In this document: piece by piece, positions 1-62,625 of the stretch
How positions within the stretch are numbered: the stretch's first letter is position 1
Layout of the letters: every line of letters starts with the position of its first letter
IMG/VR virus record: IMGVR_UViG_3300037400_003073
Strand: one strand, 5' to 3'
From: an uncultured virus (IMG/VR IMGVR_UViG_3300037400_003073)
Lineage: Duplodnaviria > Heunggongvirae > Uroviricota > Caudoviricetes
DNA length: 64,000 nucleotides
The notes under the pieces: model-generated
What the model saw: the letters and a program-made list of their open reading frames with translations, nothing else
Told to the model about the DNA's origin: nothing
The model's database searches: none
Program-made: the position numbers and the translations under genes

Positions 1-345
1 AATAGAACAAAAACGGCAATTTCTGAAAAATATTTTTCAAAACTATTGACCGTGAACAAATAAATTTCTATATATAGAAATGTGAGAGCGATAAAGCCCC
101 ACAAAAAACAAGAGGTAACAAAATGAATACAAATGAACAAAAATTCGACTGCCTTTCAGTCACTCACGTCGAAGTTTCAGTTTTCAAGCAAGGGGCTTAT
201 CTTGGAAAGCTTCGCGGATTTGCTACGATTGTCTTGAACGGCCAATTGCAGATTCGCGGCTTGATGATCATGGATTCTGAAAATGGCCTTTACGTCGGTT
301 ATCCGACCGATCCGTATTGCCGCGAAGACTTCCAGCACATGGTTC
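1..345 (+). repeat. Duplicate of right-end early region: 1-127 = 59901-60027 and 110-345 = 60780-61015 (770-bp deletion allele)
   Basis: Base-by-base identity; the join lies inside the shared 18-mer aagaggtaacaaaatgaa; identity ends after ggttc (345/61015). Confidence 0.95.
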
Positions 346-404
346 CGTCGTCGTTCGCGGCCATGATGACTTCTTCTGCGACCTCGGCGCGCTTTGTAAT
401 GTAG
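123..404 (+). pseudogene. 3'-truncated/chimeric copy of the SpoVG-like gene
   Basis: Identical to 60793-61089 up to FQHMV, then runs into unrelated sequence. Confidence 0.8.
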
Positions 405-16791: not shown

Positions 16792-16794
16792 GTA

Positions 16795-16867
16795 TTGCAA
16801 CAGCGGGGCTCGAACCCGCAGCCTCGTCCTTCGGAGGGACGCGCTCTATCCATTGAGCTATGCCACA
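16795..16867 (-). tRNA. tRNA-Arg(CCG), CCA not encoded
   Basis: Cloverleaf: TGTGGCA/TGTTGCA acceptor, GCTC/GAGC D-stem, CGTCC-CTCCGAA-GGACG, GCGGG-TTCGAGC-CCCGC. Confidence 0.9.
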
Positions 16868-16927
16868 AGGGTCGCGTGGTTCGCAAGTCGAGGATACCAC
16901 TCACACCACTTGCGCCCCCGCGTTGTT

Positions 16928-17169: not shown

Positions 17170-19908
17170 CTATGATGCCTTGAATACTTCGGGCCAGTCG
17201 GGTTTAACGATTCCATTTGGGCCCAGTTCGCCCACGTCCTTCATGTCCGCCCAGGTAGCGCCGACCGGTGACATTTCCGCCTCGATCACGAGCGGGACGC
17301 AAATCCAGGGGAACGCACGCGAGACGCGCTCCACGCCGTTCTGATATACGATGGCGGCGACCTGGTTTTCTTCACCTTCGCGGACAAGGGCAATAATGGC
17401 GTCGTGAATCTGTCCAATTATGCAGGACTGCATCCCCCGTTCCTTAGCCAGCTCGTTTATGCGCTGGACATCCCACGAGAGAGCTCGGAGCAGAATGTGG
17501 AATGCCGACCCCTGGATGCACCGGTTGGTCGCTTCGGTGTAGCCCATAGGACCACGGCACCGGAACCCCGTGTAGCTTTCGACGTACCCGAACGTTTGGT
17601 ACCGGTCCCATTCCTTTTTGCGCCATTGGTTATACACTTTAAAGCGTTGGTTCCAAAAGATGTCGTCGGCCTTTTCGACGTGGGCCTCCCATTTCTTGAA
17701 GGTATTGATGCCGCAATCTTTCGCCAGGTGTTCCTTCGTGTATGGCGGCATGTTCGCCCACATGCGGGTGGCGCATGACTTGTAGTTCGCACCATAGAAC
17801 GAGGCGAACACGTACCCGGACTTGATGGAGGAGCGTTCTTCCTTCGTCAGTATATCGGGGGTCCTTATGTACATATCGCAGGCCGTGTCGCGGTGCATGT
17901 CCGATTCCGGGTTCTGTAGGTAGTGTATCATTTGCGGGTCGTGGTGATAGCTCGCGGACACCATGACTTCCAGGCTCTTGTAGTCCATTTCCATGTAGCG
18001 GAACCCCGGCGGCGCGACGAACAGGTTCCGCAACATTTTTTTAACTTGCTTGTCACGCTTCGGGATGTTTTGAAAGTTCGGGCTGTCAGCGCTCGATCTG
18101 TAGGTACGCGGTCCCGCCTGGCTCTTTTCTCCAGTCGTGGTGCCGCTCTCGGAACCCGTCGAGAGGTTGAAGAAAGTACGGATGAGGTGGCAGCCCTTTT
18201 CCTCGTCCCAAACGGCCTCGCGCTGGTAGGATTCCAGGAACGTGTCGCGGATTTTCGCCCAGTGTCTCATTTCGAGCACATCCCGACACAACTGGGTCCC
18301 CAGTTTGGTGAGCGTGTCTTCCTTCACGTCTTGGGATTCCGCGGGCGGTTTCAGCTTGCACACGTCATAAAGAACCTCGCAGAGCTGCTTGTTTGAATTT
18401 GGATTGAAGTCCTCACCGGGGTGTTTCTGTTGCCATTTCTTGACATCGGGGGATGCCATTATCTTTGCGACCGCGGCGCCGAGCTTGACCCGCAGTTCTT
18501 CCTTGAGTTGCCTGGCCTTCTCAAGATCAATCGGGAGTCCTTCGGACTGGACGCGGGCCAGCGTATCCATACCTTCCATAAAGAACCGGAAGGCGCCCTC
18601 CATGCCAGAAAGTTGCCGCACCTGGGCGTCACGAATAAATAGCGTATAGAGTGAATCCTCCGAGCAATAATAGACCACATCGCCGCGCGGGATTCCCTCC
18701 CCGGAGTGTAAAAGGTTAAATGCGTTGCACCCGTACTTTTCCGCCTCTCCCTGGACCAGGGTGCGGATGTACTTGTCCGCCTTCGTGTCGTACCCCAGGA
18801 CCCCGAGTTCGCAATACGTGTGGAGCTTGAGCCCCACCTTTTGGTTGTTGTCGATAACATGGGCCGCCAGGCAAGTGTCCCAGCTCCAGTTGGTAGGCCA
18901 GTCGGTTCTCCCGTTCCCGATACCTCCGCGGAACCTGGTCCAGCACGCTTCGAAACTGGCATTGTGCGCCACGATCCCGATGCGGGGATGGTGTGTCAGT
19001 TCGTGCCATGCCTTCACAAGCCGTGGGTGGTTTCCGTCCCAAAGGAACCCGAACGCGTGATACTTGCCGTCCATGCGGTAAGCGACGGACGCAGCGTATA
19101 TGCGGTGCCCTTCTCTGTGAGGCTTGAGCCCGGTTGTCTCGTAGTCGATAGCCACGTCGACGACGCCGTCGGGGGCTGCCCCGAGAGCATTTACGGCGGC
19201 CCAGTACATGACGTCCTCGATCCATTCGGCGGCAACGTCGGGGTCTTCCGTCACCCGTATATCGTCGGGTATTTCGGGAAGCGGCTTGTCCTTCAATGCC
19301 CAGGCGTTGCGGACGTGCTGGGCTAGATACATGGCGGGGCAACTGTCCCGGCGTTGCCACGATATAAACTCGGGAGAATACGTCGGGCAAATCCAGGCGT
19401 TGTACTTCCGGTCGGGGATGCGTTTTCCGAAAAGGTCGCTCGGTTGGGTGTTCTTGATTCTACCCGCAAGCCGGTCCCAAATAAGGGCCTTCGTAGGTAT
19501 TACCCCCATTGGTATGATAACACGGGGCTGCAGCTCCCGGATTAGGCGGTCCAGGCGTTCGGAACAGCACGCGGGGTTTTTCGGTTCCTTACCTTCGGGA
19601 ACCGGGCACGGAAGGGCGTACCCTACCCAGGCATGGTCGAGGATACGCTTCGGTACGCCGCGGCACCCGGCCTGGTCGAACAGCACGTCGTAGAGTTCCA
19701 GCGAAAATACGTGGGCGGCGTCGTTCCCCTCGCCCCGTCTCGGGTAGTCGGAGAGGATCAAGACACGGTCCGCCCCCTTGCCCGCGAACCCCGACAACTT
19801 GCCGCTGCCGTCAAGTCCACAGGCCTTGCAACCTGTTGGCGGCGCCGCCCGTTTTGTTCGCGTCTTGTTGGCAAGCAGCATTTCCTGGCTAATATCGAAA
19901 AACCCCAT
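17170..19908 (-). CDS. polA: Family A DNA polymerase with N-terminal UDG-like domain and 3'-5' exonuclease
   Basis: IDYETTG, AHNASFE, PNFQNIP, MDYKSLE, RSSIKSGYVFASFYG, QIHDA; N-terminal CxxC...LQPRVIIPMG...PTYSP. Confidence 0.92.
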   Translation of the reverse strand: MGFFDISQEMLLANKTRTKRAAPPTGCKACGLDGSGKLSGFAGKGADRVLILSDYPRRGEGNDAAHVFSLELYDVLFDQAGCRGVPKRILDHAWVGYALPCPVPEGKEPKNPACCSERLDRLIRELQPRVIIPMGVIPTKALIWDRLAGRIKNTQPSDLFGKRIPDRKYNAWICPTYSPEFISWQRRDSCPAMYLAQHVRNAWALKDKPLPEIPDDIRVTEDPDVAAEWIEDVMYWAAVNALGAAPDGVVDVAIDYETTGLKPHREGHRIYAASVAYRMDGKYHAFGFLWDGNHPRLVKAWHELTHHPRIGIVAHNASFEACWTRFRGGIGNGRTDWPTNWSWDTCLAAHVIDNNQKVGLKLHTYCELGVLGYDTKADKYIRTLVQGEAEKYGCNAFNLLHSGEGIPRGDVVYYCSEDSLYTLFIRDAQVRQLSGMEGAFRFFMEGMDTLARVQSEGLPIDLEKARQLKEELRVKLGAAVAKIMASPDVKKWQQKHPGEDFNPNSNKQLCEVLYDVCKLKPPAESQDVKEDTLTKLGTQLCRDVLEMRHWAKIRDTFLESYQREAVWDEEKGCHLIRTFFNLSTGSESGTTTGEKSQAGPRTYRSSADSPNFQNIPKRDKQVKKMLRNLFVAPPGFRYMEMDYKSLEVMVSASYHHDPQMIHYLQNPESDMHRDTACDMYIRTPDILTKEERSSIKSGYVFASFYGANYKSCATRMWANMPPYTKEHLAKDCGINTFKKWEAHVEKADDIFWNQRFKVYNQWRKKEWDRYQTFGYVESYTGFRCRGPMGYTEATNRCIQGSAFHILLRALSWDVQRINELAKERGMQSCIIGQIHDAIIALVREGEENQVAAIVYQNGVERVSRAFPWICVPLVIEAEMSPVGATWADMKDVGELGPNGIVKPDWPEVFKAS

Positions 19909-22002: not shown

Positions 22003-23454
22003 TCATCGGCGGGTGCGACGCCTCCCGGTGTATTTCGGTTGGTTTTCTTCGGCGGAATACGAGACCTCGCCCATATCGACACAGGATAGGCGTGCACATT
22101 CCAGGTAGGGGCGCCCGATCGCCAGGCAGTTCGTACACACCACCTCGTCAAATATAACACCGCCGTCGCGGGTAGTAGAGCACGAGATTCGGTATATGCC
22201 CCGCGCCTTTTCCTGTTCGGTTTGGTTGATCGCGACCAGTTTCGTCACGTGCGCGACTTTGCGGCGGTCTTCGGACACGTTCTTGGCGGATGCGTCCTTT
22301 TCGCCGTCCATCGTCTCGGTACCTGTATGCGACGCCGTGACGACCAGGCATCCCAGTTCAAGGCCCAGGCCTCTCAATGCTTGCCAGGTCATGTTTATCT
22401 GATGGCGGACCTCCACGCGGGAGTTCCCGTGGTCCATGATGTCCGCGGAATCTACAACCACGACGTCCGGAACAAAATTCTCGTATGTGCCCATTGTCGT
22501 GATTTCGGAGCGCAAGCCGCGGACGGACAAGGTGCCGGTAGGGAATGCCCGGAGCTCAAGGCGACCATGCCTTGACACACGGCGAACGCTCTCCTGGATA
22601 GCTTCGATGCCCTCGAAGGAAGTTTCCACCCGTTCTGTCTTTACTTCGCGGTCAAGGATAGACCAACGGCCCTCCCCGGTTTCCTCAAGTACAGGCCACG
22701 GAGCGCTTTCCCCGTAACGGGAGCACCCGTTTATCATTTGCCAAAAACGGCGCACCATCTGTTTCTTCGTCATTTCGAGAGACACGAAAAGCACGCGCTT
22801 TCCCTTGAGTGCGGCGGCAAACGCGGTGGCCATGAGCCACCAGGTCTTGCCGCGTTTCGGAGGCGCTATGTAAGCTATAAAGTCGTCCGTGGTGAACGGG
22901 CCCAATACGTGCCCCAGTTCTCCGGGGAATTGGAATTCGATCTCCTCCGTGTCGTCGAAGGCTTGCGCGATTTGTCTTGCGTCGCTAAAGATGGATACGG
23001 ACTCCTTGACCCGGACGTTCGGGCGCTGGAACTCCGCGACGGCAAGGAACCCCGCGGACGTGTCATGGTTGGAGAGAGCCCGACCTATGCGTTCATGGAG
23101 CATGGCCAGCGCCCGTTCCTGGAAATATTCGACCGCCATGTCTTCCGCCTGCTTGTCATTCGTCGGGAGCCATTCATCCGAACAGGTCTCGAGAAACACC
23201 GCGACAAGTTCCGCGTCGGATTCCCGCAGCTCGCGTTTACGGCGCATGTAAATATCCTTTATCGCTTTTCCCGGGGCGTCGCCGGTCCGGTCGAAAAATT
23301 CCCACACCCAGGTAGCGACGGCGCGGCTCATGGTGCTTTCGAACATGGCGGGGTCCCCCACTGTCCGTATCTTGGATAGCAGCGGGGTGGACATTATAAG
23401 GTTTGAGAGCACGCGGCGCTCGATGGACAAGTCTATTTTTTCACGTGTAATCAT
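22003..23454 (-). CDS. DnaB-like replicative helicase
   Basis: APPKRGKT, VSLEM, VVVDSAD, VTASH. Confidence 0.85.
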   Translation of the reverse strand: MITREKIDLSIERRVLSNLIMSTPLLSKIRTVGDPAMFESTMSRAVATWVWEFFDRTGDAPGKAIKDIYMRRKRELRESDAELVAVFLETCSDEWLPTNDKQAEDMAVEYFQERALAMLHERIGRALSNHDTSAGFLAVAEFQRPNVRVKESVSIFSDARQIAQAFDDTEEIEFQFPGELGHVLGPFTTDDFIAYIAPPKRGKTWWLMATAFAAALKGKRVLFVSLEMTKKQMVRRFWQMINGCSRYGESAPWPVLEETGEGRWSILDREVKTERVETSFEGIEAIQESVRRVSRHGRLELRAFPTGTLSVRGLRSEITTMGTYENFVPDVVVVDSADIMDHGNSRVEVRHQINMTWQALRGLGLELGCLVVTASHTGTETMDGEKDASAKNVSEDRRKVAHVTKLVAINQTEQEKARGIYRISCSTTRDGGVIFDEVVCTNCLAIGRPYLECARLSCVDMGEVSYSAEENQPKYTGRRRTRR

Positions 23455-25628
23455 TTAAAATCCCTTGTATGAATGACGACACCGCGACGTTCGAGAAGTT
23501 CGCTCAACAGGTCCACGTCGGCGGCTTCCTTGCCGTCAAGGACTCCGTCGAGCATCTTTGCGCGGTCGTCCAGCACTTCCACGGCGTCCATATCCACGGT
23601 ACCCGGCGCCACCAGGTAATACGAGGTCACCGAGCTCTTTTGCCCGGACCGGTGCAAACGATCCTCCGCCTGTCGGTGTGCGTTCGGAGTGTGCGAAAAT
23701 TCAGCGAACGCCACATCGGAACAGACATCCTGGAACCCGTCGATGCCGACTCCGCCGGACTGGATGTTCGCCACCATTACGCGGCAGTCCACGTCTTCGA
23801 TAAACCGCCTGCGGGCATCCTCGCGTTCCGCCTGGTTCATTCCACCGTATATTTTCGCGGGATGGAAATCCCGGAGCGTCGAGAAAAGCAAATCGACCAC
23901 ATCGCGATGCCATGCAAAAAGGAGCAGCTTTCGACCGGAGTCCAGGAAGTCACGGACCCACTGGAGCAGGTTCTTTTCCTTGAGGGCATAGGCGGTACGC
24001 AAGAGACCCGCGACACGTTCCCGCATTTCCTTTTCGCTAGTGCCGTCCTGGGTGAAGGCGACGGCTTCCGCCATCTTGTAGTCCTGGAACGCCTTCGCGT
24101 CAACTTCGAGGGGGACGACCTCCATGACCTTGCGCGGGAGGTCCGTCATGACTTCGGCCTTTGTTCGTCGCAACATGCACCCGACAAACAGGGCGTGGAG
24201 TTCCTTCACGTTCGAGGCTCCGTTGAAAGTGAGCGAGAACCCGTTGTGCTTCGGTGCGCAATACCGGTACAGGTAGGAACGCTGGCTCTTGAATCTCTCG
24301 GGGTCCATTATGTTTAGAAGCGGCCAAAACTGGGCGGGCTTGCTCATGGCGGGCGTTCCGCTCATGCCTATCACGTCGGGAATTTTACGGGCCAGGCGCA
24401 TGAAGGCCCGGGAACGTTGCGAGCTAGGGTTTCCGATGGCTTGAACCTCGTCGCCTATTAGCAGCTTGAAGCCCAGGCCGGTCAATTCTTCCTCCCAGTC
24501 GCTCAAGATGTCCCAGTTGATAATGTAGGACACACCGGGCTCGAGCATGTAGGGCGTCTTGCCCTGGAGCACGGCGACGCGTGGCTTGTAGCCAGGGACG
24601 GACCCGACCCAGCGGTAATACGCGGACTGCCATTGGAGCTTTGTCGGGGCGTTCACGACGATAAGGGCGGGGAACCTGTTCGCGTAAACGAGCCACGACA
24701 AGGCCTCGACCGTCTTTCCGCAATTATGGACGACGACCCCGTCCGCCAGGAAGTTCGCATGGTTCAGCACCTTTACGTCGTAGGTGTGGCGTGTGCCTAC
24801 CCGTTCAATAGATACAGGGCGTACCGCCTTGGGTGTGTTCGTGGAGTTAATATTGCATACTACAGCACTGCCGCCTAAACGTTCCGCCGGAACCCAACCA
24901 CAGGATTCTGTGAGAACCTGGTGGTCGGGGGTGCATACCAACGTGCGCCCATCCTCGAACGTGACGCGGACGCATTCCCGTTCCCCGCTGTCGATCACGT
25001 CCACGACCTCCCCGAGCCTAAATACGCCGTCCTGGTGGATGCAGCGTATGAACCACGGGCGTTCTTGCAAGGTGTAAAGTTTGCGCGGGTCGTCGCTGTG
25101 GAACTTGCGGAAGAACGCCGCTAGGGTCATTCTCTTGGCGGCGCCGTGCCGGTTTACCTGTACCATGGCTTCACCGTCGATGCATCCCATTTCGTCGCCC
25201 AGGGCTACGCGCCCGCGCCGGATCGTCGCGAACTTGAGGAAGTCCAACTGGTACGAACGCAGGCCCGGTATCATGGGGGCGGTAGGGTCGAGCTGAACCG
25301 CGGCGATGCGCTTTCGCTGTTCTTCAACGGGGTCCACTTCGGGTACTTTTTCCGCCGAGGGCGGTTGGGCTTCGTACTTCCTGGGAGCAGGGAACCCCGC
25401 AACCTGGAGCCATTCGAGCATTTCAGCGCTCGCGGGGACCTCCCAGCGCTTGGTTGCCGCGTTGTACTTGCGGCGGGGCAGATTTCGGACCGCAGTGAGA
25501 ACTTTCTGCCAGTCCGCGCTCTCGTGTGCCACCCAGGCTATCGAAATCGTCTTGCCGCTTTCTTTGTATTCCGCGGAATACCGGACGCCAGGGACGGGCG
25601 AAAATGGTTGTAATTTTTGCGTAAACAT
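23451..25628 (-). CDS. SNF2/HARP-like helicase containing an intein
   Basis: LRSYQ, DEMG|CGKT, DEVQ, SGTP, LRRTK, QAEDRLHRSGQ. Confidence 0.9.
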   Translation of the reverse strand: MFTQKLQPFSPVPGVRYSAEYKESGKTISIAWVAHESADWQKVLTAVRNLPRRKYNAATKRWEVPASAEMLEWLQVAGFPAPRKYEAQPPSAEKVPEVDPVEEQRKRIAAVQLDPTAPMIPGLRSYQLDFLKFATIRRGRVALGDEMGCIDGEAMVQVNRHGAAKRMTLAAFFRKFHSDDPRKLYTLQERPWFIRCIHQDGVFRLGEVVDVIDSGERECVRVTFEDGRTLVCTPDHQVLTESCGWVPAERLGGSAVVCNINSTNTPKAVRPVSIERVGTRHTYDVKVLNHANFLADGVVVHNCGKTVEALSWLVYANRFPALIVVNAPTKLQWQSAYYRWVGSVPGYKPRVAVLQGKTPYMLEPGVSYIINWDILSDWEEELTGLGFKLLIGDEVQAIGNPSSQRSRAFMRLARKIPDVIGMSGTPAMSKPAQFWPLLNIMDPERFKSQRSYLYRYCAPKHNGFSLTFNGASNVKELHALFVGCMLRRTKAEVMTDLPRKVMEVVPLEVDAKAFQDYKMAEAVAFTQDGTSEKEMRERVAGLLRTAYALKEKNLLQWVRDFLDSGRKLLLFAWHRDVVDLLFSTLRDFHPAKIYGGMNQAEREDARRRFIEDVDCRVMVANIQSGGVGIDGFQDVCSDVAFAEFSHTPNAHRQAEDRLHRSGQKSSVTSYYLVAPGTVDMDAVEVLDDRAKMLDGVLDGKEAADVDLLSELLERRGVVIHTRDFK
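24723..25184 (-). mobile_element. Mini-intein (154 aa) in Walker A of the helicase
   Basis: C1 (CIDGE), block B CTPDH, block F TYDV, terminal VVHN followed by +1 Cys; no LAGLIDADG domain. Confidence 0.92.
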
Positions 25629-28181: not shown

Positions 28182-29564
28182 AAAAAGCGTGGGCAGGAAG
28201 ATGCCGTCCCTTTAGGGCGGCGTAGGAATGCCCACGAGAACACTTTGGGAACACTTTATTCCAATATTGCACCTAAAATGCTTGATTTGCAATTCGAAAT
28301 GTTCTAAACTTATAATTGAACACGGGTGAAATTCAGATGGCAGAACTGACCTACAATGCAGAGCTACGGTTCCGTACCAAGGAAGACCACGAATACTGGT
28401 CTAGTCTTCTTGCATTGTCCAGGAAAGCCTACAACAAGTGTGCGAACATCCTTGATTCCAACAATGTCCATATAGACTTGCGGTCAGTCCACAAGGCAGT
28501 GTATGATATTCTCCGTGAGGAATATCCAACCATTCCAAGCCAAGCCGTAATCAAGATATACAAGGAGTGCATATCGGCATTCCGTTCCATCAAGAGCAAC
28601 GGCCATAAGAAGCACAAAATACCAGAAAAGCATGGTCTATCAATGAGGCTGGACAAGCGGCTGTATTCTAAGTTCAATCGCAAGAGCATTGCATTGTGCT
28701 CCGGCAAGGCTTGCAAAAGAGCCGTAGCGGATATTGTCGGTTATGACAGGCTGGAGTCGCTGTTTGTGCAATATACCACAGCCGACCCGTTGATTTTCAT
28801 GCGAAATGGGCGTTTCTTCCTTTCGATAACATTCAATGTTCCCGATGTACCTCTATATGATGACAACTGCATCGGATTGGATATGGGCGAACGCCGTTTC
28901 GCAATTTCCTCCGATGGAATCATGTTCCACGACAAGGAATACAACAAGCGTAGACGCAAACTACGCTACTTGAAGCGTTGCTTGCAAAAGAAAGGAACTA
29001 AGTCTGCACGTAGGCATTCTCGTAAGCTATCCATCAAGGAACAAAACCAGTCTACCGATATGTGCCGAAAGATTGCCAATGCGGTAATCCAAAGCACGTC
29101 AGCTTCCATTATCGTAATGGAAGATTTAAGCGGAATTAAGCAGAAGACTTCAAAGTCTAAAGAGGGATTCAAACGGAAATCCCATAATCGTAGGATGTGC
29201 CAAATTCCATTCTACAAGTTCAAGCAAATCTTGTCATACAAGACACCGCTGTACGGTAAGACAGTGGAAACAGTTTCTCCGTTCATGACAAGCCAAACTG
29301 ATTGCACCACGGGCAAGAAGGAAGGTACTCGCAAGAATCGTAGATTCTATTGCAAGAACGGTACTGTCCTGGATGCCGACTGGAATGCTGCAATCAACAT
29401 AGCTCGGAAGAGCAAACATCCTTCCTCGTTCAAGATGCCCCTTGATGGCGCATTGAGAACTTGGAAGGCAGGGTGTATGTCAACCACCCAATCGTACATC
29501 AGTCTCCCTGCGGTAACAACGGGAGCCGTACAAGCTCACGCCCTTCAGGGCGTGGGTAGTTGAC
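28182..29564 (+). mobile_element. Non-autonomous IS200/IS605-family element (tnpB only), inserted 3' of TCAC
   Basis: LE: GAAG at +16..19 then hairpin GCCGTCCC-TTTA-GGGCGGC; RE: CAAG, hairpin CTCACGCCC-TTCA-GGGCGTGGG, ends TGAC; composition differs from flanks. Confidence 0.9.
28337..29563 (+). CDS. tnpB: RNA-guided endonuclease TnpB
   Basis: RuvC motifs IGLDMG, VMEDL, DADWNAAINI; TSQTDC; degenerate zinc finger. Confidence 0.92.
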   Translation: MAELTYNAELRFRTKEDHEYWSSLLALSRKAYNKCANILDSNNVHIDLRSVHKAVYDILREEYPTIPSQAVIKIYKECISAFRSIKSNGHKKHKIPEKHGLSMRLDKRLYSKFNRKSIALCSGKACKRAVADIVGYDRLESLFVQYTTADPLIFMRNGRFFLSITFNVPDVPLYDDNCIGLDMGERRFAISSDGIMFHDKEYNKRRRKLRYLKRCLQKKGTKSARRHSRKLSIKEQNQSTDMCRKIANAVIQSTSASIIVMEDLSGIKQKTSKSKEGFKRKSHNRRMCQIPFYKFKQILSYKTPLYGKTVETVSPFMTSQTDCTTGKKEGTRKNRRFYCKNGTVLDADWNAAINIARKSKHPSSFKMPLDGALRTWKAGCMSTTQSYISLPAVTTGAVQAHALQGVGS

Positions 29565-57162: not shown

Positions 57163-57665
57163 GTAGAACAAAATGCACGGTCAAAAGCGTAAAGGCTTCG
57201 CCGTTCATTACAACAGCAGGTCGCCCGTTTACATTCATTGGCGCCGCGCGCATTGCGATAGAACTGGCTCGAACCTATACGGACGGCAAAACCGAAAAAG
57301 CGTTGCTTACCATAAAAATTCGTCCCGGCTACAAAACAGACGGGGCAAGCACATTTTTTCCTATTTCGTTGCTTGTGCCGCAATGGGTTCCAGGTGACGA
57401 CAATTACAACGCCGCCCCGGTTGCTCACGATGTGCTGTACATGCTCGGTGGTATAGTCGCGGGTGAACACGAGCCCGTGAAGTTGAGCCGCGAGGAAGTG
57501 GACGACATTTTGCGCGGAGTTTGGCGTTGCTGGGGAATGTCCCGCTTTGTTGCAGGGTGCGCAGACAAGGGCGTCGAGGTTTTCGCGGGCGGAAAAGATC
57601 ACTGGGGCAATGACGGGTACGGCGTGCGGCAATACGCAAGCGCAACATGGACGGTGCTGGAATGA
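57159..57665 (+). CDS. DUF1353-like protein
   Basis: PGYKTDGAS, AAPVAHDVLY, SREEVDDIL. Confidence 0.75.
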   Translation: MSRTKCTVKSVKASPFITTAGRPFTFIGAARIAIELARTYTDGKTEKALLTIKIRPGYKTDGASTFFPISLLVPQWVPGDDNYNAAPVAHDVLYMLGGIVAGEHEPVKLSREEVDDILRGVWRCWGMSRFVAGCADKGVEVFAGGKDHWGNDGYGVRQYASATWTVLE

Positions 57666-58081
57666 CCCTCGTGGAATATGCGGAAAAGTTTATCGGGCGT
57701 CCGTATGTTTGGGGCGGCGACGGCTCCGGTAAGTTTGGCGGCGGGTTCGATTGCTCGGGCCTGGTGCTCGAAGCTCTCAAGACCACGGGATATATCGGGA
57801 ACGGCCAGGATTTGACGGCCCAGGGCTTGCACGACGCCTTGAAGAAATCCGGGTGGGTGGAAGTGCCTCTCGCGCTAATGACGGCACAGGACGTGCTATT
57901 TTGGGGCAAGTCCGGGAAGGCTATCACGCACACGGCGATAGCTATTGGGCGCAGCCAGTACATAGAGGCGGGCGGCGGAGGTTCTAAATGCACCTCCCCG
58001 GAGAAATCCACCGGCATGGTCCGGGTCCGTCCATTAGGTGCAAGAGAGGCGCCCGTCGCGATCTTGAGGGCGCCTGTGTAG
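57662..58081 (+). CDS. NlpC/P60 (C40) peptidase, probable endolysin
   Basis: GRPYVWGG, FDCSGLV, DVLFW, HTAI. Confidence 0.88.
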   Translation: MTLVEYAEKFIGRPYVWGGDGSGKFGGGFDCSGLVLEALKTTGYIGNGQDLTAQGLHDALKKSGWVEVPLALMTAQDVLFWGKSGKAITHTAIAIGRSQYIEAGGGGSKCTSPEKSTGMVRVRPLGAREAPVAILRAPV

Positions 58082-58138: not shown

Positions 58139-58402
58139 ACTTCAACAGCTCCAGCAAGAGCCCCAGGAACTCCAGGGCGCACGAAACGGAGCAGGCAAGG
58201 AACATGAGTCCCAGGAACAGGAAGACCGCGATCCGACCGGGTGTTTTCTCTTTCCGTCCTTCATCGTAAGGGCGGATTGTCCCCGCTCACCTCCCAAGTG
58301 TTTATCTTATAAGGTATATATTTCTTTATTATTAATTTGCATAAGTGCAAATAAATTTCTATATTTGAAAAATAAAAAGAAAAAAAAAAGGACGTTTTTA
58401 AA

Positions 58403-58669
58403 ATGGCTATCATACAAAGTAAAGAAAGACTTGCAGCGGTGAGAAAGCACTACCCGGATGACGAATTGTTGATTGCTGCATGCGATCATCTTTTTAACTT
58501 GTTCGACAAGGAAGAAGACCTCAAGCGTGAGATCAACGTATGCAACGGTGCGTGGGTCCACTTTTTGCGCGGAAAATCACGGCAAGGGGTGCGGCTGGCG
58601 ATCATCAATCGTGCCGCTCGAACGGCCATTCATGACTGTCTGCTGGGTCATGAATGTAAAAAGACGTAA
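58403..58669 (+). CDS. Hypothetical protein
   Basis: AAGGA RBS; TTGCAT..TATATT promoter upstream. Confidence 0.55.
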   Translation: MAIIQSKERLAAVRKHYPDDELLIAACDHLFNLFDKEEDLKREINVCNGAWVHFLRGKSRQGVRLAIINRAARTAIHDCLLGHECKKT

Positions 58670-58739
58670 ACAAGATTGTGTTTTTTGAGCGAAAAACGGC
58701 AATTTCTGAAAATTCTTGAAAAAAATTTTGTTTTACCTA

Positions 58740-58768
58740 TTGACGGGCGGTTTAGAAAATTCTATATA
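58740..58768 (+). promoter_or_regulatory. Sigma70-like promoter TTGACG-17-TATATA
   Basis: Shares the upstream aaaacggcaatttctgaaaa block with 59946 and 46. Confidence 0.75.
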
Positions 58769-58818
58769 TAGAAACGTGAGCGGGAACGAACCCGCCACGA
58801 AAAACAAGAGGTAACAAA

Positions 58819-59121
58819 ATGAAAATCATCAATTACACTGTCAATACTAGAGGTTTTGACGAAACTTTTAAAACGCCTTCCTTCGAAACGAAATCCGATG
58901 CGAATGTAAAAATCCATGAAATTGAAGAAGATTTGTATGGTAAAAAGTATTACCTTAATCATGGTGAGTACGCACGCCCGGAATTTAAGGCGCAGCGATA
59001 CAAAGACGGTTGGGGTATAAAGGTTTTGTATCATTACCTTACAGGGACTTGCCACGCGCCAAAAGACGGAAGGTTTACTTCTAAAGATCGTTTTTTCGAA
59101 AGATTCTTCGATGAAGCATAA
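58819..59121 (+). CDS. Hypothetical early protein
   Basis: AAGAGGTAACAAAATG RBS. Confidence 0.7.
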   Translation: MKIINYTVNTRGFDETFKTPSFETKSDANVKIHEIEEDLYGKKYYLNHGEYARPEFKAQRYKDGWGIKVLYHYLTGTCHAPKDGRFTSKDRFFERFFDEA

Positions 59122-59178
59122 GGGGGTCGGATCATGAAAACGCAAATTTCCACTCTTCGGCCCTAGACAAGCCCGCCC

Positions 59179-59208
59179 GCCGGGGGCGTTCCCCGGCACA
59201 TTTTTTTT
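59179..59208 (+). terminator. Intrinsic terminator
   Basis: GCCGGGG/CCCCGGC stem followed by T8. Confidence 0.65.
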
Positions 59209-59226
59209 ACTCAAGAGGTACTGAAT

Positions 59227-59484
59227 ATGTGCATGGATGATTACTGTTTTCGAAAAGTCGAGAACAAGGACCGTGAACGAAACGAACGCCTTGACGCTGC
59301 CGTGTATGCCAGGAAAGGTGCGGAGATTGCCCGAACCTCCATACAAGAAGATACCGCCGAATACGTCATTTTGGCCGCATATCCGGGCGCGGACGATTTC
59401 GAGGTGCTGGGAGTAGGCACGAAGAAATTCGGCCTTGAATTGGGCCTTAAAATGGATCGTGACGTTAATCTTTTGTTTATGTAA
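59227..59484 (+). CDS. Hypothetical protein
   Basis: GAGG RBS. Confidence 0.55.
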   Translation: MCMDDYCFRKVENKDRERNERLDAAVYARKGAEIARTSIQEDTAEYVILAAYPGADDFEVLGVGTKKFGLELGLKMDRDVNLLFM

Positions 59485-59493
59485 GGAATTTAT

Positions 59494-59709
59494 ATGAAAG
59501 CAGTAATTACGAACAAAGAAGGCGGCTTCGTTATCAATTCCGATGGGTTCCAAGTCGAAATCCATCCCAATGGAAAAGGCGGCGTTGATGTTTGCTTTTT
59601 CGGCAAAGTGCCAAGAAAACTGAAATACGTTGTCGAGAAGCACAAGAACTTGTTTGTAAATCCCGACATTGCGAGGACGCTAGTTTGTAACGAAATTTCT
59701 CGATTGTGA
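59494..59709 (+). CDS. Hypothetical protein
   Basis: AAGGA RBS. Confidence 0.6.
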   Translation: MKAVITNKEGGFVINSDGFQVEIHPNGKGGVDVCFFGKVPRKLKYVVEKHKNLFVNPDIARTLVCNEISRL

Positions 59710-59715
59710 GTATTT

Positions 59716-59860
59716 GGCGAAGGCGGGCTTGTTACCTCATCACCTCAATGTTTCCCGCCTTCGCCTTCTGCTTTTCCCGCGCCCGATCCATTGCGCGGGT
59801 TTCTCCGCCCCGGAGTGGCTTCTTTGTTACCTTTTGGGCCGCTCCGGGGTCCTTTTTTTT
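59716..59860 (+). ncRNA. Three-hairpin element with anti-RBS loops, ending in a terminator
   Basis: 12-bp stem 59716-27/59754-65 with loop TTGTTACCTC; third hairpin loop TTTGTTACCT followed by T8. Confidence 0.5.
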
Positions 59861-59945
59861 ATGTTTCTTAAATGTAAATTTTATTTAATAAAGTGGCGAA
59901 AATAGAACAAAAACGGCAATTTCTGAAAAATATTTTTCAAAACTA

Positions 59946-59974
59946 TTGACCGTGAACAAATAAATTTCTATATA
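59946..59974 (+). promoter_or_regulatory. Sigma70-like promoter TTGACC-17-TATATA
   Basis: Identical copy at 46-74. Confidence 0.75.
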
Positions 59975-60022
59975 TAGAAATGTGAGAGCGATAAAGCCCC
60001 ACAAAAAACAAGAGGTAACAAA

Positions 60023-60241
60023 ATGAAAAGAATGACTTTCAAAACGATTTGCGAAAAGTTAGCCGCAAAATCCATCGTAAAGATTAGCACTACTTGGGGA
60101 TGGCAGATTTGCAAGTCCGAAGAAATTAAGATTGATTCCAAAAAGAAAATTTTCGAAATTCCTGCATTTAGCAAATATTGGGGAGCGTATATGCACCCCG
60201 TGCGTTGCGGCGAAGTCATTTCTATTGAGAATGCAGCATAA
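60023..60241 (+). CDS. Hypothetical early protein
   Basis: AAGAGGTAACAAAATG RBS. Confidence 0.65.
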   Translation: MKRMTFKTICEKLAAKSIVKISTTWGWQICKSEEIKIDSKKKIFEIPAFSKYWGAYMHPVRCGEVISIENAA

Positions 60242-60252
60242 GGGGGCGGATC

Positions 60253-60552
60253 ATGATTTCTTTGCATAACAGAATCGAACGCGATTTCCGCGAATGGCTC
60301 GCCAAGAACGGCGAAGCCGGGGCAACCTTCGGGGAGCAGGGCCGATATACGGTCATTACCCTTACCAAAGATGCAGAAGGTGATTTTGCCGCCTACCTCG
60401 AAGAATTTTGCAAGGCCGAAGCCTTCGACATTAAGAATTCGATTGGCCTTTATCGCTCCCCGGAATTTTTCTTCCGCGATGCAAAAACCTTGATGTTCCA
60501 GCGTCATTTCACAACGGAACGTCCCACGAAACAACTTTGTGAATTTATTTAG
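60253..60552 (+). CDS. Hypothetical protein
   Basis: Operon ORF with RBS. Confidence 0.6.
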   Translation: MISLHNRIERDFREWLAKNGEAGATFGEQGRYTVITLTKDAEGDFAAYLEEFCKAEAFDIKNSIGLYRSPEFFFRDAKTLMFQRHFTTERPTKQLCEFI

Positions 60553-60560
60553 GTGGAAGC

Positions 60561-60788
60561 ATGACACGCGAAGAATTTATCGAGTACACCAAAAGGGCCC
60601 TTGCGCCTACGCTGAAAAGGCGCAAGCTGAAAAACGGAAACCTCATGATTTTCTACATCAAGAATCAATACGTAGAAATCCCGCCGGAGGTTTGGAATTT
60701 CCAGCCGGAGGACACTTGCGAAGCTAAGCGTCAAGAACGCCTTGCAGGTGTTTTCTATGATCTTTTCACCGCAAAAAATAAGAGGTAA
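60561..60788 (+). CDS. Hypothetical protein
   Basis: Operon ORF with RBS. Confidence 0.6.
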   Translation: MTREEFIEYTKRALAPTLKRRKLKNGNLMIFYIKNQYVEIPPEVWNFQPEDTCEAKRQERLAGVFYDLFTAKNKR

Positions 60789-60792
60789 CAAA

Positions 60793-61089
60793 ATGAATAC
60801 AAATGAACAAAAATTCGACTGCCTTTCAGTCACTCACGTCGAAGTTTCAGTTTTCAAGCAAGGGGCTTATCTTGGAAAGCTTCGCGGATTTGCTACGATT
60901 GTCTTGAACGGCCAATTGCAGATTCGCGGCTTGATGATCATGGATTCTGAAAATGGCCTTTACGTCGGTTATCCGACCGATCCGTATTGCCGCGAAGACT
61001 TCCAGCACATGGTTCTTCCGATGACGCGGGCACTTCGCGAACACATCGAAAATTGCGTTCTTGAAAAATACCAGCAGGCGATAGGCTGA
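60793..61089 (+). CDS. spoVG: SpoVG-family nucleic-acid-binding protein
   Basis: VTHVEV...KLRGFATIVL...IRGLMIMDSENGLYVGYP...P.TRALREHIE..VLEKY. Confidence 0.75.
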   Translation: MNTNEQKFDCLSVTHVEVSVFKQGAYLGKLRGFATIVLNGQLQIRGLMIMDSENGLYVGYPTDPYCREDFQHMVLPMTRALREHIENCVLEKYQQAIG

Positions 61090-61091
61090 TT

Positions 61092-61925
61092 ATGGCGAAG
61101 TCTTCGACAAACGAAATAGCGAAAATTCTCGACCGCATACAAGGTTTCGATACTTACACGGTTATCCGTGACTTTTTCGAGATTTCCGCCATTTCGATTA
61201 GGAATAACGTAGATTATGGCAAGGAGCGCGATTCGTACGAACAACGTTATCTAGCCATAATCAAGAAGTACAGAAAGGAAGATTTGGCCGTATTTGTCGA
61301 AGCGTTGGGCGTGTTCATGGGATTGATTCAGAAGGCTATGGACGGCGATATTCCTTTTCGCGATTTCGCTGGCGAAATCTACATGGATTCGGGCACCAGC
61401 AGCGGCAAGGCCGGTCAATTCTTCACGCCTTACCATGTGTCGCACCTCATGGCCGAAGTCAACTTCGACAAGGACAAACTAAAGGCCGAAATCGCGGCGG
61501 ACCCGGATCACGTTATCACTATCGCCGAACCGACTTGCGGCGCGGGCGGGCTTATCGTCGCTGCAATCGACGTTCTCAAGGATGCGGGCATTAATTATGC
61601 TTGGAACGCCTTCGTGGATTGTGGCGACATTGACGCCCGATGCGTACACATGACGTATCTTACTTTGTCATTGCTTGGCGTCCCTGCCGTTGTGCGCCGT
61701 GGCGATGCGCTGGCCCTTGACTACTCCGAAACGTGGTACACGCCCGCGTATATCTTCGCTTGGCCGCACTTCAAGAGCCGTTTGCGTGGCGGCAAATATC
61801 CGTCAACCCCAACGGTGCAGGAAGCCCCGCAAGAGCCGCAGACGGCCCCGGTCGTTGAAGTTCCGCAGGTTGTCCCGGCTCCCATCCCGTTGATGGACGA
61901 GAACGGCCAACTTTCACTTTTTTAG
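61092..61925 (+). CDS. N6-methyltransferase-like SAM-binding protein (no NPPY motif seen)
   Basis: GQFFTP, EPTCGAGG, GDID, GDAL. Confidence 0.7.
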   Translation: MAKSSTNEIAKILDRIQGFDTYTVIRDFFEISAISIRNNVDYGKERDSYEQRYLAIIKKYRKEDLAVFVEALGVFMGLIQKAMDGDIPFRDFAGEIYMDSGTSSGKAGQFFTPYHVSHLMAEVNFDKDKLKAEIAADPDHVITIAEPTCGAGGLIVAAIDVLKDAGINYAWNAFVDCGDIDARCVHMTYLTLSLLGVPAVVRRGDALALDYSETWYTPAYIFAWPHFKSRLRGGKYPSTPTVQEAPQEPQTAPVVEVPQVVPAPIPLMDENGQLSLF

Positions 61926-61935
61926 CGAGGTAACT

Positions 61936-62238
61936 TTGCAGAATTGGGAACAACTTATTGCGGATAAGGTAGCTCCCGAATGGAGAAGGCACCGCCTAGA
62001 AGTTCAGAAGGCTTGGAAGGCAAGAAAAAGGGCAGAAAAAAAGGAGCTTGAAAAAATGAGAACAAATGCAAAAGTAGGCGACACGATCCGAATTATCGAA
62101 ATGAAGGGCGAACCGCGCTATGATGGAAAAATTGGTGTTGTCGAGCATATCGACGACATCGGACAAGTTCACGGCACTTGGGGCGGATGCGCTATCCAGC
62201 CGGAGCGCGACACCTTCGAAATCTTGCAACACGCATGA
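61936..62238 (+). CDS. DUF4314-like protein
   Basis: VGDTIRIIEM...GVVEHIDDIGQVHGTW. Confidence 0.65.
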   Translation: MQNWEQLIADKVAPEWRRHRLEVQKAWKARKRAEKKELEKMRTNAKVGDTIRIIEMKGEPRYDGKIGVVEHIDDIGQVHGTWGGCAIQPERDTFEILQHA

Positions 62239-62247
62239 GGTAAATAA

Positions 62248-62625
62248 ATGAAGTTTGAAGAAATTTATAAAAAAGTTCTTGATAGTGATAAAAAGTTTAA
62301 AGGGCTAGGCATCCCAATAAATTTAGATTTTAAGATTGAAGATTTGCGTGACGCTCTTATAGAATCAAATGATAAAATCGAAGAACTAAAATCCATTAAT
62401 AAAAAAGAGCTTGATGCGCTCCGAAAGGAAAACGCCTACTTGCGGCGGCTTGTAGCTCACGCCTTGAGCGGGTGGGCTATGGGAATGAGCATGGCAAACG
62501 TTTATCTTTCAAAAGGTTCAAGAGAAAAGCAAATTAAATATTATATGGTGTTCAAAAAATTCGAAAACCTGCACAATATCGAAAAGGACAAGTGGAGAAA
62601 AGAAAAAGCGGAGTCATACAAATGA
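62248..62625 (+). CDS. Hypothetical protein
   Basis: GAGG RBS. Confidence 0.6.
   Translation: MKFEEIYKKVLDSDKKFKGLGIPINLDFKIEDLRDALIESNDKIEELKSINKKELDALRKENAYLRRLVAHALSGWAMGMSMANVYLSKGSREKQIKYYMVFKKFENLHNIEKDKWRKEKAESYK

Follow-up and report, generated by a model that had tools for sequence, protein, structure and literature searches.

We analysed a stretch of 64,000 nucleotides (nt) from an uncultured rumen phage of the Caudoviricetes (IMG/VR record IMGVR_UViG_3300037400_003073), hereafter the window, and describe an RNA element of three hairpins on its plus strand (positions 59716-59860), which begins directly after the stop codon of an early gene for a protein of 71 amino acids (aa). According to sequence comparison, an early operon ends in this element, a structured RNA whose fold is conserved, and it is the loops, not the stems or the linkers, that keep predicted complementarity to a ribosome-binding site (RBS) common to several early genes. 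With a probability of roughly 0.55, we propose that the element is an anti-RBS regulatory RNA that would block translation of the early cassettes, either in trans or by pairing between the 5' and 3' untranslated regions (UTRs) of its own transcript. That the RNA is produced, that it pairs with its targets and that pairing has a repressive effect are steps that we infer.

A conserved three-hairpin RNA at the end of operon 1

Operon 1 comprises a promoter (58740-58768), three small genes and then the three-hairpin element (Table 1). The element fills the interval between the stop codon of the 71-aa gene (59707-59709) and the end of the terminator at 59860, and every relative shows the same layout. 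Hairpin 3 is followed by eight T residues (T8), and a hairpin with a T-run is kept in all eight full-length sequences, in agreement with the claim of an earlier note, made from the window sequence, that this hairpin doubles as an intrinsic terminator. A 166-nt plus-strand segment folds with a predicted energy of -70.2 kcal/mol (z -6.64), and none of 200 shuffled sequences folds as well. Searching the whole window against Rfam at gathering scores returned tRNA only. At E<=10, the interval 59400-60100 gave eight chance-level rows, none of them C4 and the best being mir-483 with 21.8 bits against a threshold of 60, and the same search on the related contig L001 likewise gave no family for the element. 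Because no Rfam family matches, C4 included, we class the element as a new RNA family.

Relatives were collected by protein-guided and pattern-guided scans, which yielded contigs from IMG/VR (L001, L002 and L017), contigs of rumen-type metagenomes (L124, L125, L128, L129 and L130) and one contig of a metagenome-assembled genome (MAG; L138). The metagenome scan gave 15 loci; L132-L136 were dropped because they are weak matches of 26-49 residues that lie in GC-rich DNA of no relation, L131 stops short of the element, L122 and L123 duplicate L001, and L126 and L127 duplicate L017. In IMG/VR, the first exact loop pattern had no match and a loose loop pattern matched at least 119 stretches; BLAST of 121 loci brought up three related contigs among the matches listed. 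A tighter hairpin-1 pattern matched 14 stretches, of which 11 are chance matches (no covariance-model match at E<=0.01) and three are the related contigs, and a pattern for the promoter-leader cassette matched only these three contigs. No phage with the element and without the leader was found in IMG/VR, within the reach of such exact-pattern scans. In the genome collection, a protein search found no relative and a DNA pattern found one, the contig L138 of a goat-reticulum MAG labelled Bacteroidales; a host call from a binned phage contig is unsafe, and the sigma-70-like promoters and AGGAG-type RBSs of the phage are features that we take to be not Bacteroidales-like. The gene order is common to all relatives and runs from the cassette through a variable first gene, an internal terminator-like hairpin, an 85-aa gene, the 71-aa gene and the element to the next cassette.

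Searches with a covariance model trained on three sequences identified 10 distinct sequences that carry the element (E<=1e-8), eight of them full-length and two cut by contig ends; the model finds a single copy in the window. Because the alignment was fitted to the model and the sequences are related, the pairing and covariation figures lean towards structure: standard pairs make up 92.2% of 257 cells in the model-guided alignment, compared with 32-56% after the 3' partners had been shifted by 1-3 columns; compensatory changes, on both sides of a pair, occur in 11 of 30 pairs (3 of 11 in helix 1, where 100% of cells are paired, 3 of 7 in helix 2 and 5 of 12 in helix 3); and the covariation score is 0.207, compared with 0.092 +/- 0.014 in shuffles, none of 500 scoring as high. 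Compensatory changes can also be read in the unaligned sequences, such as GGCGAAGGCGGG/CCCGCCTTCGCC versus GGTGACGGCGGG/ACCGCCGTCACC; a further example is hairpin 2, which is entirely rewritten in L125.

Three relatives (L001 2848-2990, L002 about 2290-2430 and L017 about 2120-2255) have a further conserved non-coding element, some 130 nt long, in the gap that separates the 85-aa gene from the 71-aa gene; the window lacks it. It is terminator-like, being closed by a long stem and followed by a T-run, and makes up the second such structure ahead of the three-hairpin element in relatives. It has no Rfam match and shows an unexceptional folding energy (z +1.15).

Loops 1 and 3 match a shared early leader

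The early leader AAAACAAGAGGUAACAAAAUG is the sequence matched by loops 1 and 3. Its RBS GAGGTAACAA occurs five times in the window, compared with 0.07 expected, and none of 100 shuffles reaches five copies. Four copies, all on the plus strand, stop 1 nt short of an ATG (at 123, 58819, 60023 and 60793), and the fifth is found on the minus strand in loop 1. The shorter 9-mer AGGTAACAA has eight copies, compared with 0.31 expected, and its sole two minus-strand copies are those in loops 1 and 3. All the letters on which the earlier note relied (TTGTTACCTC and CACCTC in loop 1, and TTTGTTACCT at 59823-59832 in loop 3) are where it had placed them, and the loop 1 motif complements the RBSs of the genes starting at 58819, 60023 and 60793 as it had said; a fourth RBS copy lies at 112-121. 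The repeat of the motif in loop 3 also holds, and only its length had been understated: positions 59823-59836 are complementary to CAAGAGGTAACAAA over 14 nt, with 13 Watson-Crick pairs and one G.U pair. In the leader itself, AAGAGGTAACAA(A/C)ATG is invariant at 20 sites in 10 distinct loci (AAAATG at 17 sites and AACATG at three).

The GUUACC core of loop 1 (GTTACC in DNA) is invariant in all 10 sequences, whereas there is drift in loop 2 and in the linkers. Loop 1 of L138 is nearly unchanged, although the upstream protein there shares only 46% identity with that of the window. Motif B reads ACCTCTTGTTTT in most relatives and is complementary to AAAACAAGAGGT, with Watson-Crick runs of 11-13 nt in 6 of the 10 sequences; in most relatives the second half of loop 1 reads ACCUCUUGUUUU and complements AAAACAAGAGGU. 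The first half of the loop (UUUUGUUACCUC) complements GAGGUAACAAAA. Together, loops 1 and 3 hold two or three leader-complementary stretches of 8-15 nt each, with perfect runs of 8-14 nt and with registers that differ between relatives. These matches thus place up to three antisense segments, in different registers, on one 19-nt leader stretch that contains the Shine-Dalgarno (SD) sequence.

We compared the predicted duplex energy of each loop with the leader to that of 300 composition-matched shuffles of the same loop. Loop 1 beats its shuffles in all 10 sequences (p<=0.013; -15.2 to -19.5 kcal/mol, with shuffle means of about -8), loop 3 does so in six of eight (in the window, -18.8 kcal/mol compared with a shuffle mean of -7.7) and loop 2 in none of eight. 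When the 75 start sites of the window are ranked by predicted duplex energy, the three promoter-leader sites tie for first place (-18.8 kcal/mol; median -10.3). The first gene of operon 1 is one of these joint top sites, with predicted duplex energies of -18.8 kcal/mol for loop 3 and -15.3 for loop 1. Sixth place (-16.2 kcal/mol) is held by the start site of gene 60793-61089, whose product is SpoVG-like (Pfam PF04026, E 1.2e-14), which bears out the earlier assignment of one target to such a protein. The conserved fold and loops, the target ranking and the shuffle tests also uphold two points of that note, the 3'-UTR location and the complementarity to a shared RBS, which leaves its interpretation partly supported.

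The geometry would allow pairing within one transcript as well, provided that a single RNA continues through the internal terminator-like hairpin at 59179-59207. At the head of operon 1, some 0.9-1 kb before the loops, stands the RBS at 58805-58821, which is the arrangement of the icaR type discussed below, and in a read-through transcript the target in the next cassette lies 172 nt downstream. The leaders are predicted to be largely unpaired downstream of their own 5' stem-loop. In the minimum-energy fold of the 1087-nt operon RNA the A-rich leader pairs with the U-tail, in a nested folding scheme that cannot represent a loop-leader pseudoknot.

Proposed mode of action and its weak points

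In the mechanism that we favour, hairpin 3 and the U-tract would terminate transcription of the first early operon, and the loops of hairpins 1 and 3 would display two or three segments antisense to the 19-nt leader/RBS AAAACAAGAGGUAACAAAA(UG), which heads each early cassette and the SpoVG-like gene. The loops would pair with the accessible leader and cover its SD and spacer, and the resulting duplex would keep the 30S subunit off and might also be cleavable. As the operon RNA builds up, translation of the leader-bearing genes, and perhaps the stability of their mRNAs, would drop, giving negative feedback or early shut-off. Acting in trans, the effector could be a processed small RNA (sRNA) derived from the 3' UTR or the whole mRNA; acting in cis, it could pair with the RBS of the operon's own first gene, bridging the 5' and 3' UTRs, or with the next cassette in read-through transcripts. 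A more ambitious version, to which we give only tentative credence, is that the element is an RNA-only timer for early shut-off, a trivalent anti-RBS RNA that would silence every promoter-leader cassette together with the SpoVG-like gene and so be an RNA counterpart of T4 RegA/RegB.

Several observations weigh against this mechanism. By eye, no convincing internal promoter for the element was seen in the window sequence, so processing would be required to yield a free sRNA. One terminator-like structure in the window, and two in relatives, separate the promoter from the element and may limit the RNA reaching it. The sole metatranscriptome run gave one 151-nt contig (58885-59035, in gene 58819) and none over the element; DNA carry-over is possible for this contig, contigs do not reveal RNA ends, and the run is uninformative on the element. 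Because the RBS is invariant, the strongest possible test, covariation between loop and target, is impossible, and because the relatives are related, the per-sequence shuffle tests are not independent. The shared leader recombines, so its invariance may partly reflect gene conversion rather than selection for pairing. Individual relatives also depart from the pattern: motif A of L125 and L130 contains an inserted CC (GUUACCCCUC) for which no visible RBS offers a counterpart, and in L002 and L017 loop 3 (UUCUCCUUC) has lost its match to the leader (p 0.78 and 0.52). Finally, a metagenome contig joins 58795 to 60005 through four other letters and so skips 1209 nt with operon 1 and the element; it may come from element-less natural variants or from an assembly jump through the repeated leader.

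Alternative explanations

The strongest competitor, although we consider it unlikely, is a plain structured 3' UTR or tandem terminator that protects the mRNA from 3' exonucleases and whose loops are kept for another purpose such as protein binding, for example by the phage SpoVG-like protein or by Hfq-type host factors. The likeness of the loops to an inverted RBS would then be due to common descent or to recombination with the leader cassette. In favour of such an element, hairpin 3 with its T8 has the canonical make-up of an intrinsic terminator, hairpin 1 of relatives is followed by U-runs, and recombination of the leader cassette is demonstrable. The loops, however, do not behave as expected. 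Terminator loops are normally unconserved, yet all 10 sequences keep GTTACC against a background of drift in loop 2 and the linkers; two or three separate parts of the loops fit one and the same 19-nt target, in differing registers; and a simple inverted copy of the leader would not form three pieces, each in the loop of a covarying stem.

Action on host mRNAs, or a general anti-SD sponge whose CCUC loops bind host SDs and thereby favour phage translation, is distinctly improbable. The GUUACC core and the runs of up to 14 nt match the phage-specific spacer and A-rich leader and not a generic SD, although motif B (CACCUC) does resemble a generic anti-SD sequence. Most other phage genes have ordinary AGGAG-type SD sites, from which it follows that the host evidently reads SDs, and two unrelated, non-leader phage start sites reach -17.5 and -16.9 kcal/mol, in favour of that reading. 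The 15-mer of the RBS, on the other hand, occurs three times in the 3.5-Mb MAG assembly, always on the phage contig, with the reservation that the true host may differ.

Still less probable is that the sequences act as a DNA operator, made up of AGGTAACAA boxes in both orientations around promoter 2, or that hairpins 1 and 2 form a put-like antitermination RNA. Relative to promoter 2, the boxes on its two sides are placed at about -220, -125 and +40, SpoVG-family proteins have been reported as nucleic-acid binders, and several early-region terminators need read-through. The compensatory changes and the G.U pairs nevertheless favour a folded plus-strand RNA over sites in duplex DNA: helix 1 pair 14-72 is G.U in five of nine sequences, and further G.U or U.G pairs occur in helices 2 and 3. 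The Rfam searches gave no family similar to the element, and a put-like role would leave the anti-RBS loops unexplained.

The G.U pairs also indicate the strand, since each becomes a C.A mismatch on the minus strand, and we therefore assign the function to the plus strand. The minus strand folds less stably (-63.1 kcal/mol, z -5.25), the flanking genes are all on the plus strand, and so is the U-tract after hairpin 3. No conserved reading frame was found on either strand in the 10 sequences, the plus-strand frames being often open and shifting between relatives. Real minus-strand micro-ORFs (open reading frames, ORFs), the counter-case that the earlier note had raised against itself, were examined and rejected, with stops interrupting the frames in all 10 sequences and no ATG, GTG or TTG at RBS spacing after the motifs. 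A sponge of the CsrB/RsmZ type was also rejected, as the loops of the supported plus strand carry CCUC and not GGA. That the minus strand is the functional one, its RBS copies serving micro-ORFs or acting as CsrB-like mimics that titrate an RBS-binding repressor, is thus very hard to sustain, even though its loops read GAGGTAACAA, a perfect RBS copy, and the strand folds well, because it lacks the start codons and open frames just described, loses the G.U pairs, and shows no U-tract or promoter.

Early cassettes and the 71-aa gene

Two promoter-leader cassettes lie at 58690-58821 and 59905-60025. Each consists, in order, of a conserved upstream block, a sigma-70-like promoter (TTGAC, a 17-nt spacer and TATATA), a short 5' stem-loop and an A-rich leader ...ACAAAAAACAAGAGGTAACAAAATG. 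The sequence TCTATATATAGA in the promoter 1 cassette has three occurrences, compared with 0.03 expected. About 100 nt upstream of the -35 box are conserved in the cassette (58690-58740 and 59861-59945 in the window; 3372-3470 in L001), and the upstream block of the relatives' cassettes contains a recurring TGTTTAAC box that may be an operator or UP-type element. In the first cassette of L138 (1505-1530), the loop of the 5' UTR stem-loop reads AGGTAA (GCGGG-AGGTAA-CCCGC), a partial extra copy of the RBS core.

Table 1. Coordinates of the RNA element, its predicted target sites and associated early-region features in the window
Feature	Position	Strand	Remarks
Hairpin 1	59716-59765	+	12-base-pair (bp) stem (arms 59716-59727 and 59754-59765), 26-nt loop 59728-59753
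Anti-RBS motif A, TTGTTACCTC	59729-59738	+	Loop 1; complement of GAGGTAACAA
Anti-RBS motif B, CACCTCAAT	59741-59749	+	Loop 1; includes CACCTC 59741-59746
Hairpin 2	59776-59799	+	7-bp stem, 10-nt loop without leader complementarity
Hairpin 3, terminator stem	59808-59849	+	12-15 bp (arms 59808-59819 and 59838-59849), loop 59820-59837
Anti-RBS motif C, TTTGTTACCTTTTG	59823-59836	+	Loop 3; predicted to pair with CAAGAGGTAACAAA over 14 nt
U-tract (T8) of intrinsic terminator	59853-59860	+	
Early promoter 1	58740-58768	+	TTGACG, 17-nt spacer, TATATA; repeat families D3, D7, D9
Early promoter 2, next cassette	59946-59974	+	TTGACC, 17-nt spacer, TATATA
Predicted target 1, leader RBS CAAGAGGTAACAAAATG	58805-58821	+	100-aa gene 58819-59121, first gene of operon 1
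Predicted target 2, leader RBS	60009-60025	+	72-aa gene 60023-60241
Predicted target 3, same RBS without promoter	60779-60795	+	Before SpoVG-like gene 60793-61089; rank 6 of 75
Predicted target 4, leader RBS	109-125	+	Before recombinant truncated SpoVG-like ORF 123-404
Internal terminator-like hairpin and T-run	59179-59207	+	Between genes 1 and 2 of operon 1; 8 pairs, 7 of them GC
71-aa early gene	59494-59709	+	Stop codon 59707-59709, 6 nt before hairpin 1; aligned with seven relatives

The GC-rich hairpin between the first and second genes of operon 1, with its T-run (59166-59207), recurs with near-identical sequence in L001, L017 and L138. It presumably serves as an internal terminator or attenuator, and read-through is needed for the downstream genes and the element. 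At the left end of the window, positions 1-127 are identical to 59901-60027, positions 99-345 are 99.2% identical to 60769-61015, and ORF 123-404 diverges from the SpoVG-like gene after the first 74 codons. To judge from these identities, window 1-404 is a recombinant third copy of the cassette, in which promoter 2 is fused to the first 74 SpoVG-like codons by a crossover in the shared leader/RBS.

The 71-aa protein encoded immediately upstream of the element belongs to no Pfam or PHROG family. Its confident structure model has four strands and two helices (predicted local distance difference test score 90.3), and a Foldseek search of the model against the PDB returned nothing at E<=0.001. The best VIA-align hits, kinetochore RWD-like domains (Z 6.8, root-mean-square deviation 2.9 over 69 aligned residues), fall within the stated background of that tool, and neither the family nor the structure searches gave an indication of an RNA chaperone.

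Genomic setting of the element

The window covers all or a large part of a phage genome. Replication genes occupy the minus strand from 525 to 27700 and encode a family A DNA polymerase, a DnaB-like helicase, clamp and clamp-loader-like proteins, a RecA-like protein, an SNF2 helicase and a primase (ORF 525-1652, which matches DNA primase PHROGs). Packaging and structural genes (small terminase, portal, Mu F-like protein and cement protein) run on the plus strand from about 30 kb, an NlpC/P60 lysin is encoded at 57647-58081, and from 58.4 kb there follows a series of small plus-strand genes, most of them without any Pfam or PHROG family. No integrase was found among the genes of the window. Public runs that contain the window stretch are bovine and goat gut metagenomes, and blastn of positions 58300-62300 against GenBank phages gave no match.

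Some further features of the replication and packaging regions deserve mention. A TnpB/Cas12f-like ORF of 415 aa (28316-29563, plus strand; Pfam Cas12f1-like_TNB, E 1.1e-16, and OrfB_IS605) stands between the replication and packaging modules. The SNF2-family helicase (725 aa, 23451-25628, minus strand) has a weak match to an intein-splicing domain at residues 273-302 (E 2.6e-7, below the Pfam cut-off) and may carry an intein or an intein remnant. The family A DNA polymerase (912 aa, 17170-19908, minus strand) shows a weak uracil-DNA-glycosylase-like N-terminal region (E 1.1e-4), and a phage tRNA-Arg (CCG) at 16794-16868 on the minus strand adjoins its gene.

Comparison with known systems and significance

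A close phage parallel is the c4 RNA of P1 and P7, described as a structured phage RNA from an operon system under its own control, whose loops pair around a phage RBS and block translation (PMC12197685). The element resembles c4 RNA (Rfam C4, RF01695, which also covers the P4 CI RNA) in carrying its complementary sequences in loops and in being aimed at a phage RBS. In temperate phages, c4 is encoded ahead of its target within an immunity operon, from whose transcript RNase P excises it. The element, in contrast, sits in a 3' UTR, shares the operon terminator and would target a leader that is repeated on several early cassettes, in a window in which no integrase was found.

The 3' UTR of the Staphylococcus aureus icaR mRNA contains an anti-SD motif complementary to the SD of the same mRNA. 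Pairing between the 5' and 3' UTRs is reported for icaR (PMC3868564) and a 5'/3'-UTR interaction for hbs of Bacillus subtilis (PMC5737220). The element is like icaR in that its 3'-UTR motifs complement the SD of the operon's own first gene, and unlike it in having several targets on other transcripts, three anti-RBS sites and a phage setting. RNAIII hairpins of S. aureus, RsaE/RoxS and Listeria LhrC expose C/U-rich anti-SD seeds in loops and act on several mRNAs. The element shares with these RNAs, and with sRNAs derived from 3' UTRs, the pyrimidine-rich loop seeds and the 3' UTR with a shared terminator; it differs from RNAIII, RsaE/RoxS and LhrC in that its seeds, of up to 14-15 nt, go past the SD and take in part of a phage-specific leader.

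Proteins such as sigma factors, repressors, RegA and RegB are the usual explanation for how lytic phages time their gene expression. In T4, the RegA repressor and the RegB endoribonuclease act on the initiation regions of many early or middle phage mRNAs and end their expression (PMC3014915). The proposed shut-down of many phage mRNAs at their initiation regions is similar, with the difference that RegA and RegB are proteins whereas the proposed effector here is an RNA, and the regulon would be set by one repeated leader. A literature search, mainly of titles and abstract openings, turned up neither this RNA nor any phage RNA from a 3' UTR that is directed against the phage's own early RBS.

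The case is unusually testable, since it involves one invariant 19-nt leader as the target and a 150-nt RNA as the effector. If the proposed reading is true, the element would be a new RNA family, so far seen only in rumen phage contigs, and it would give these phages a compact post-transcriptional means to end or buffer their early programme through antisense copies of their own shared RBS.

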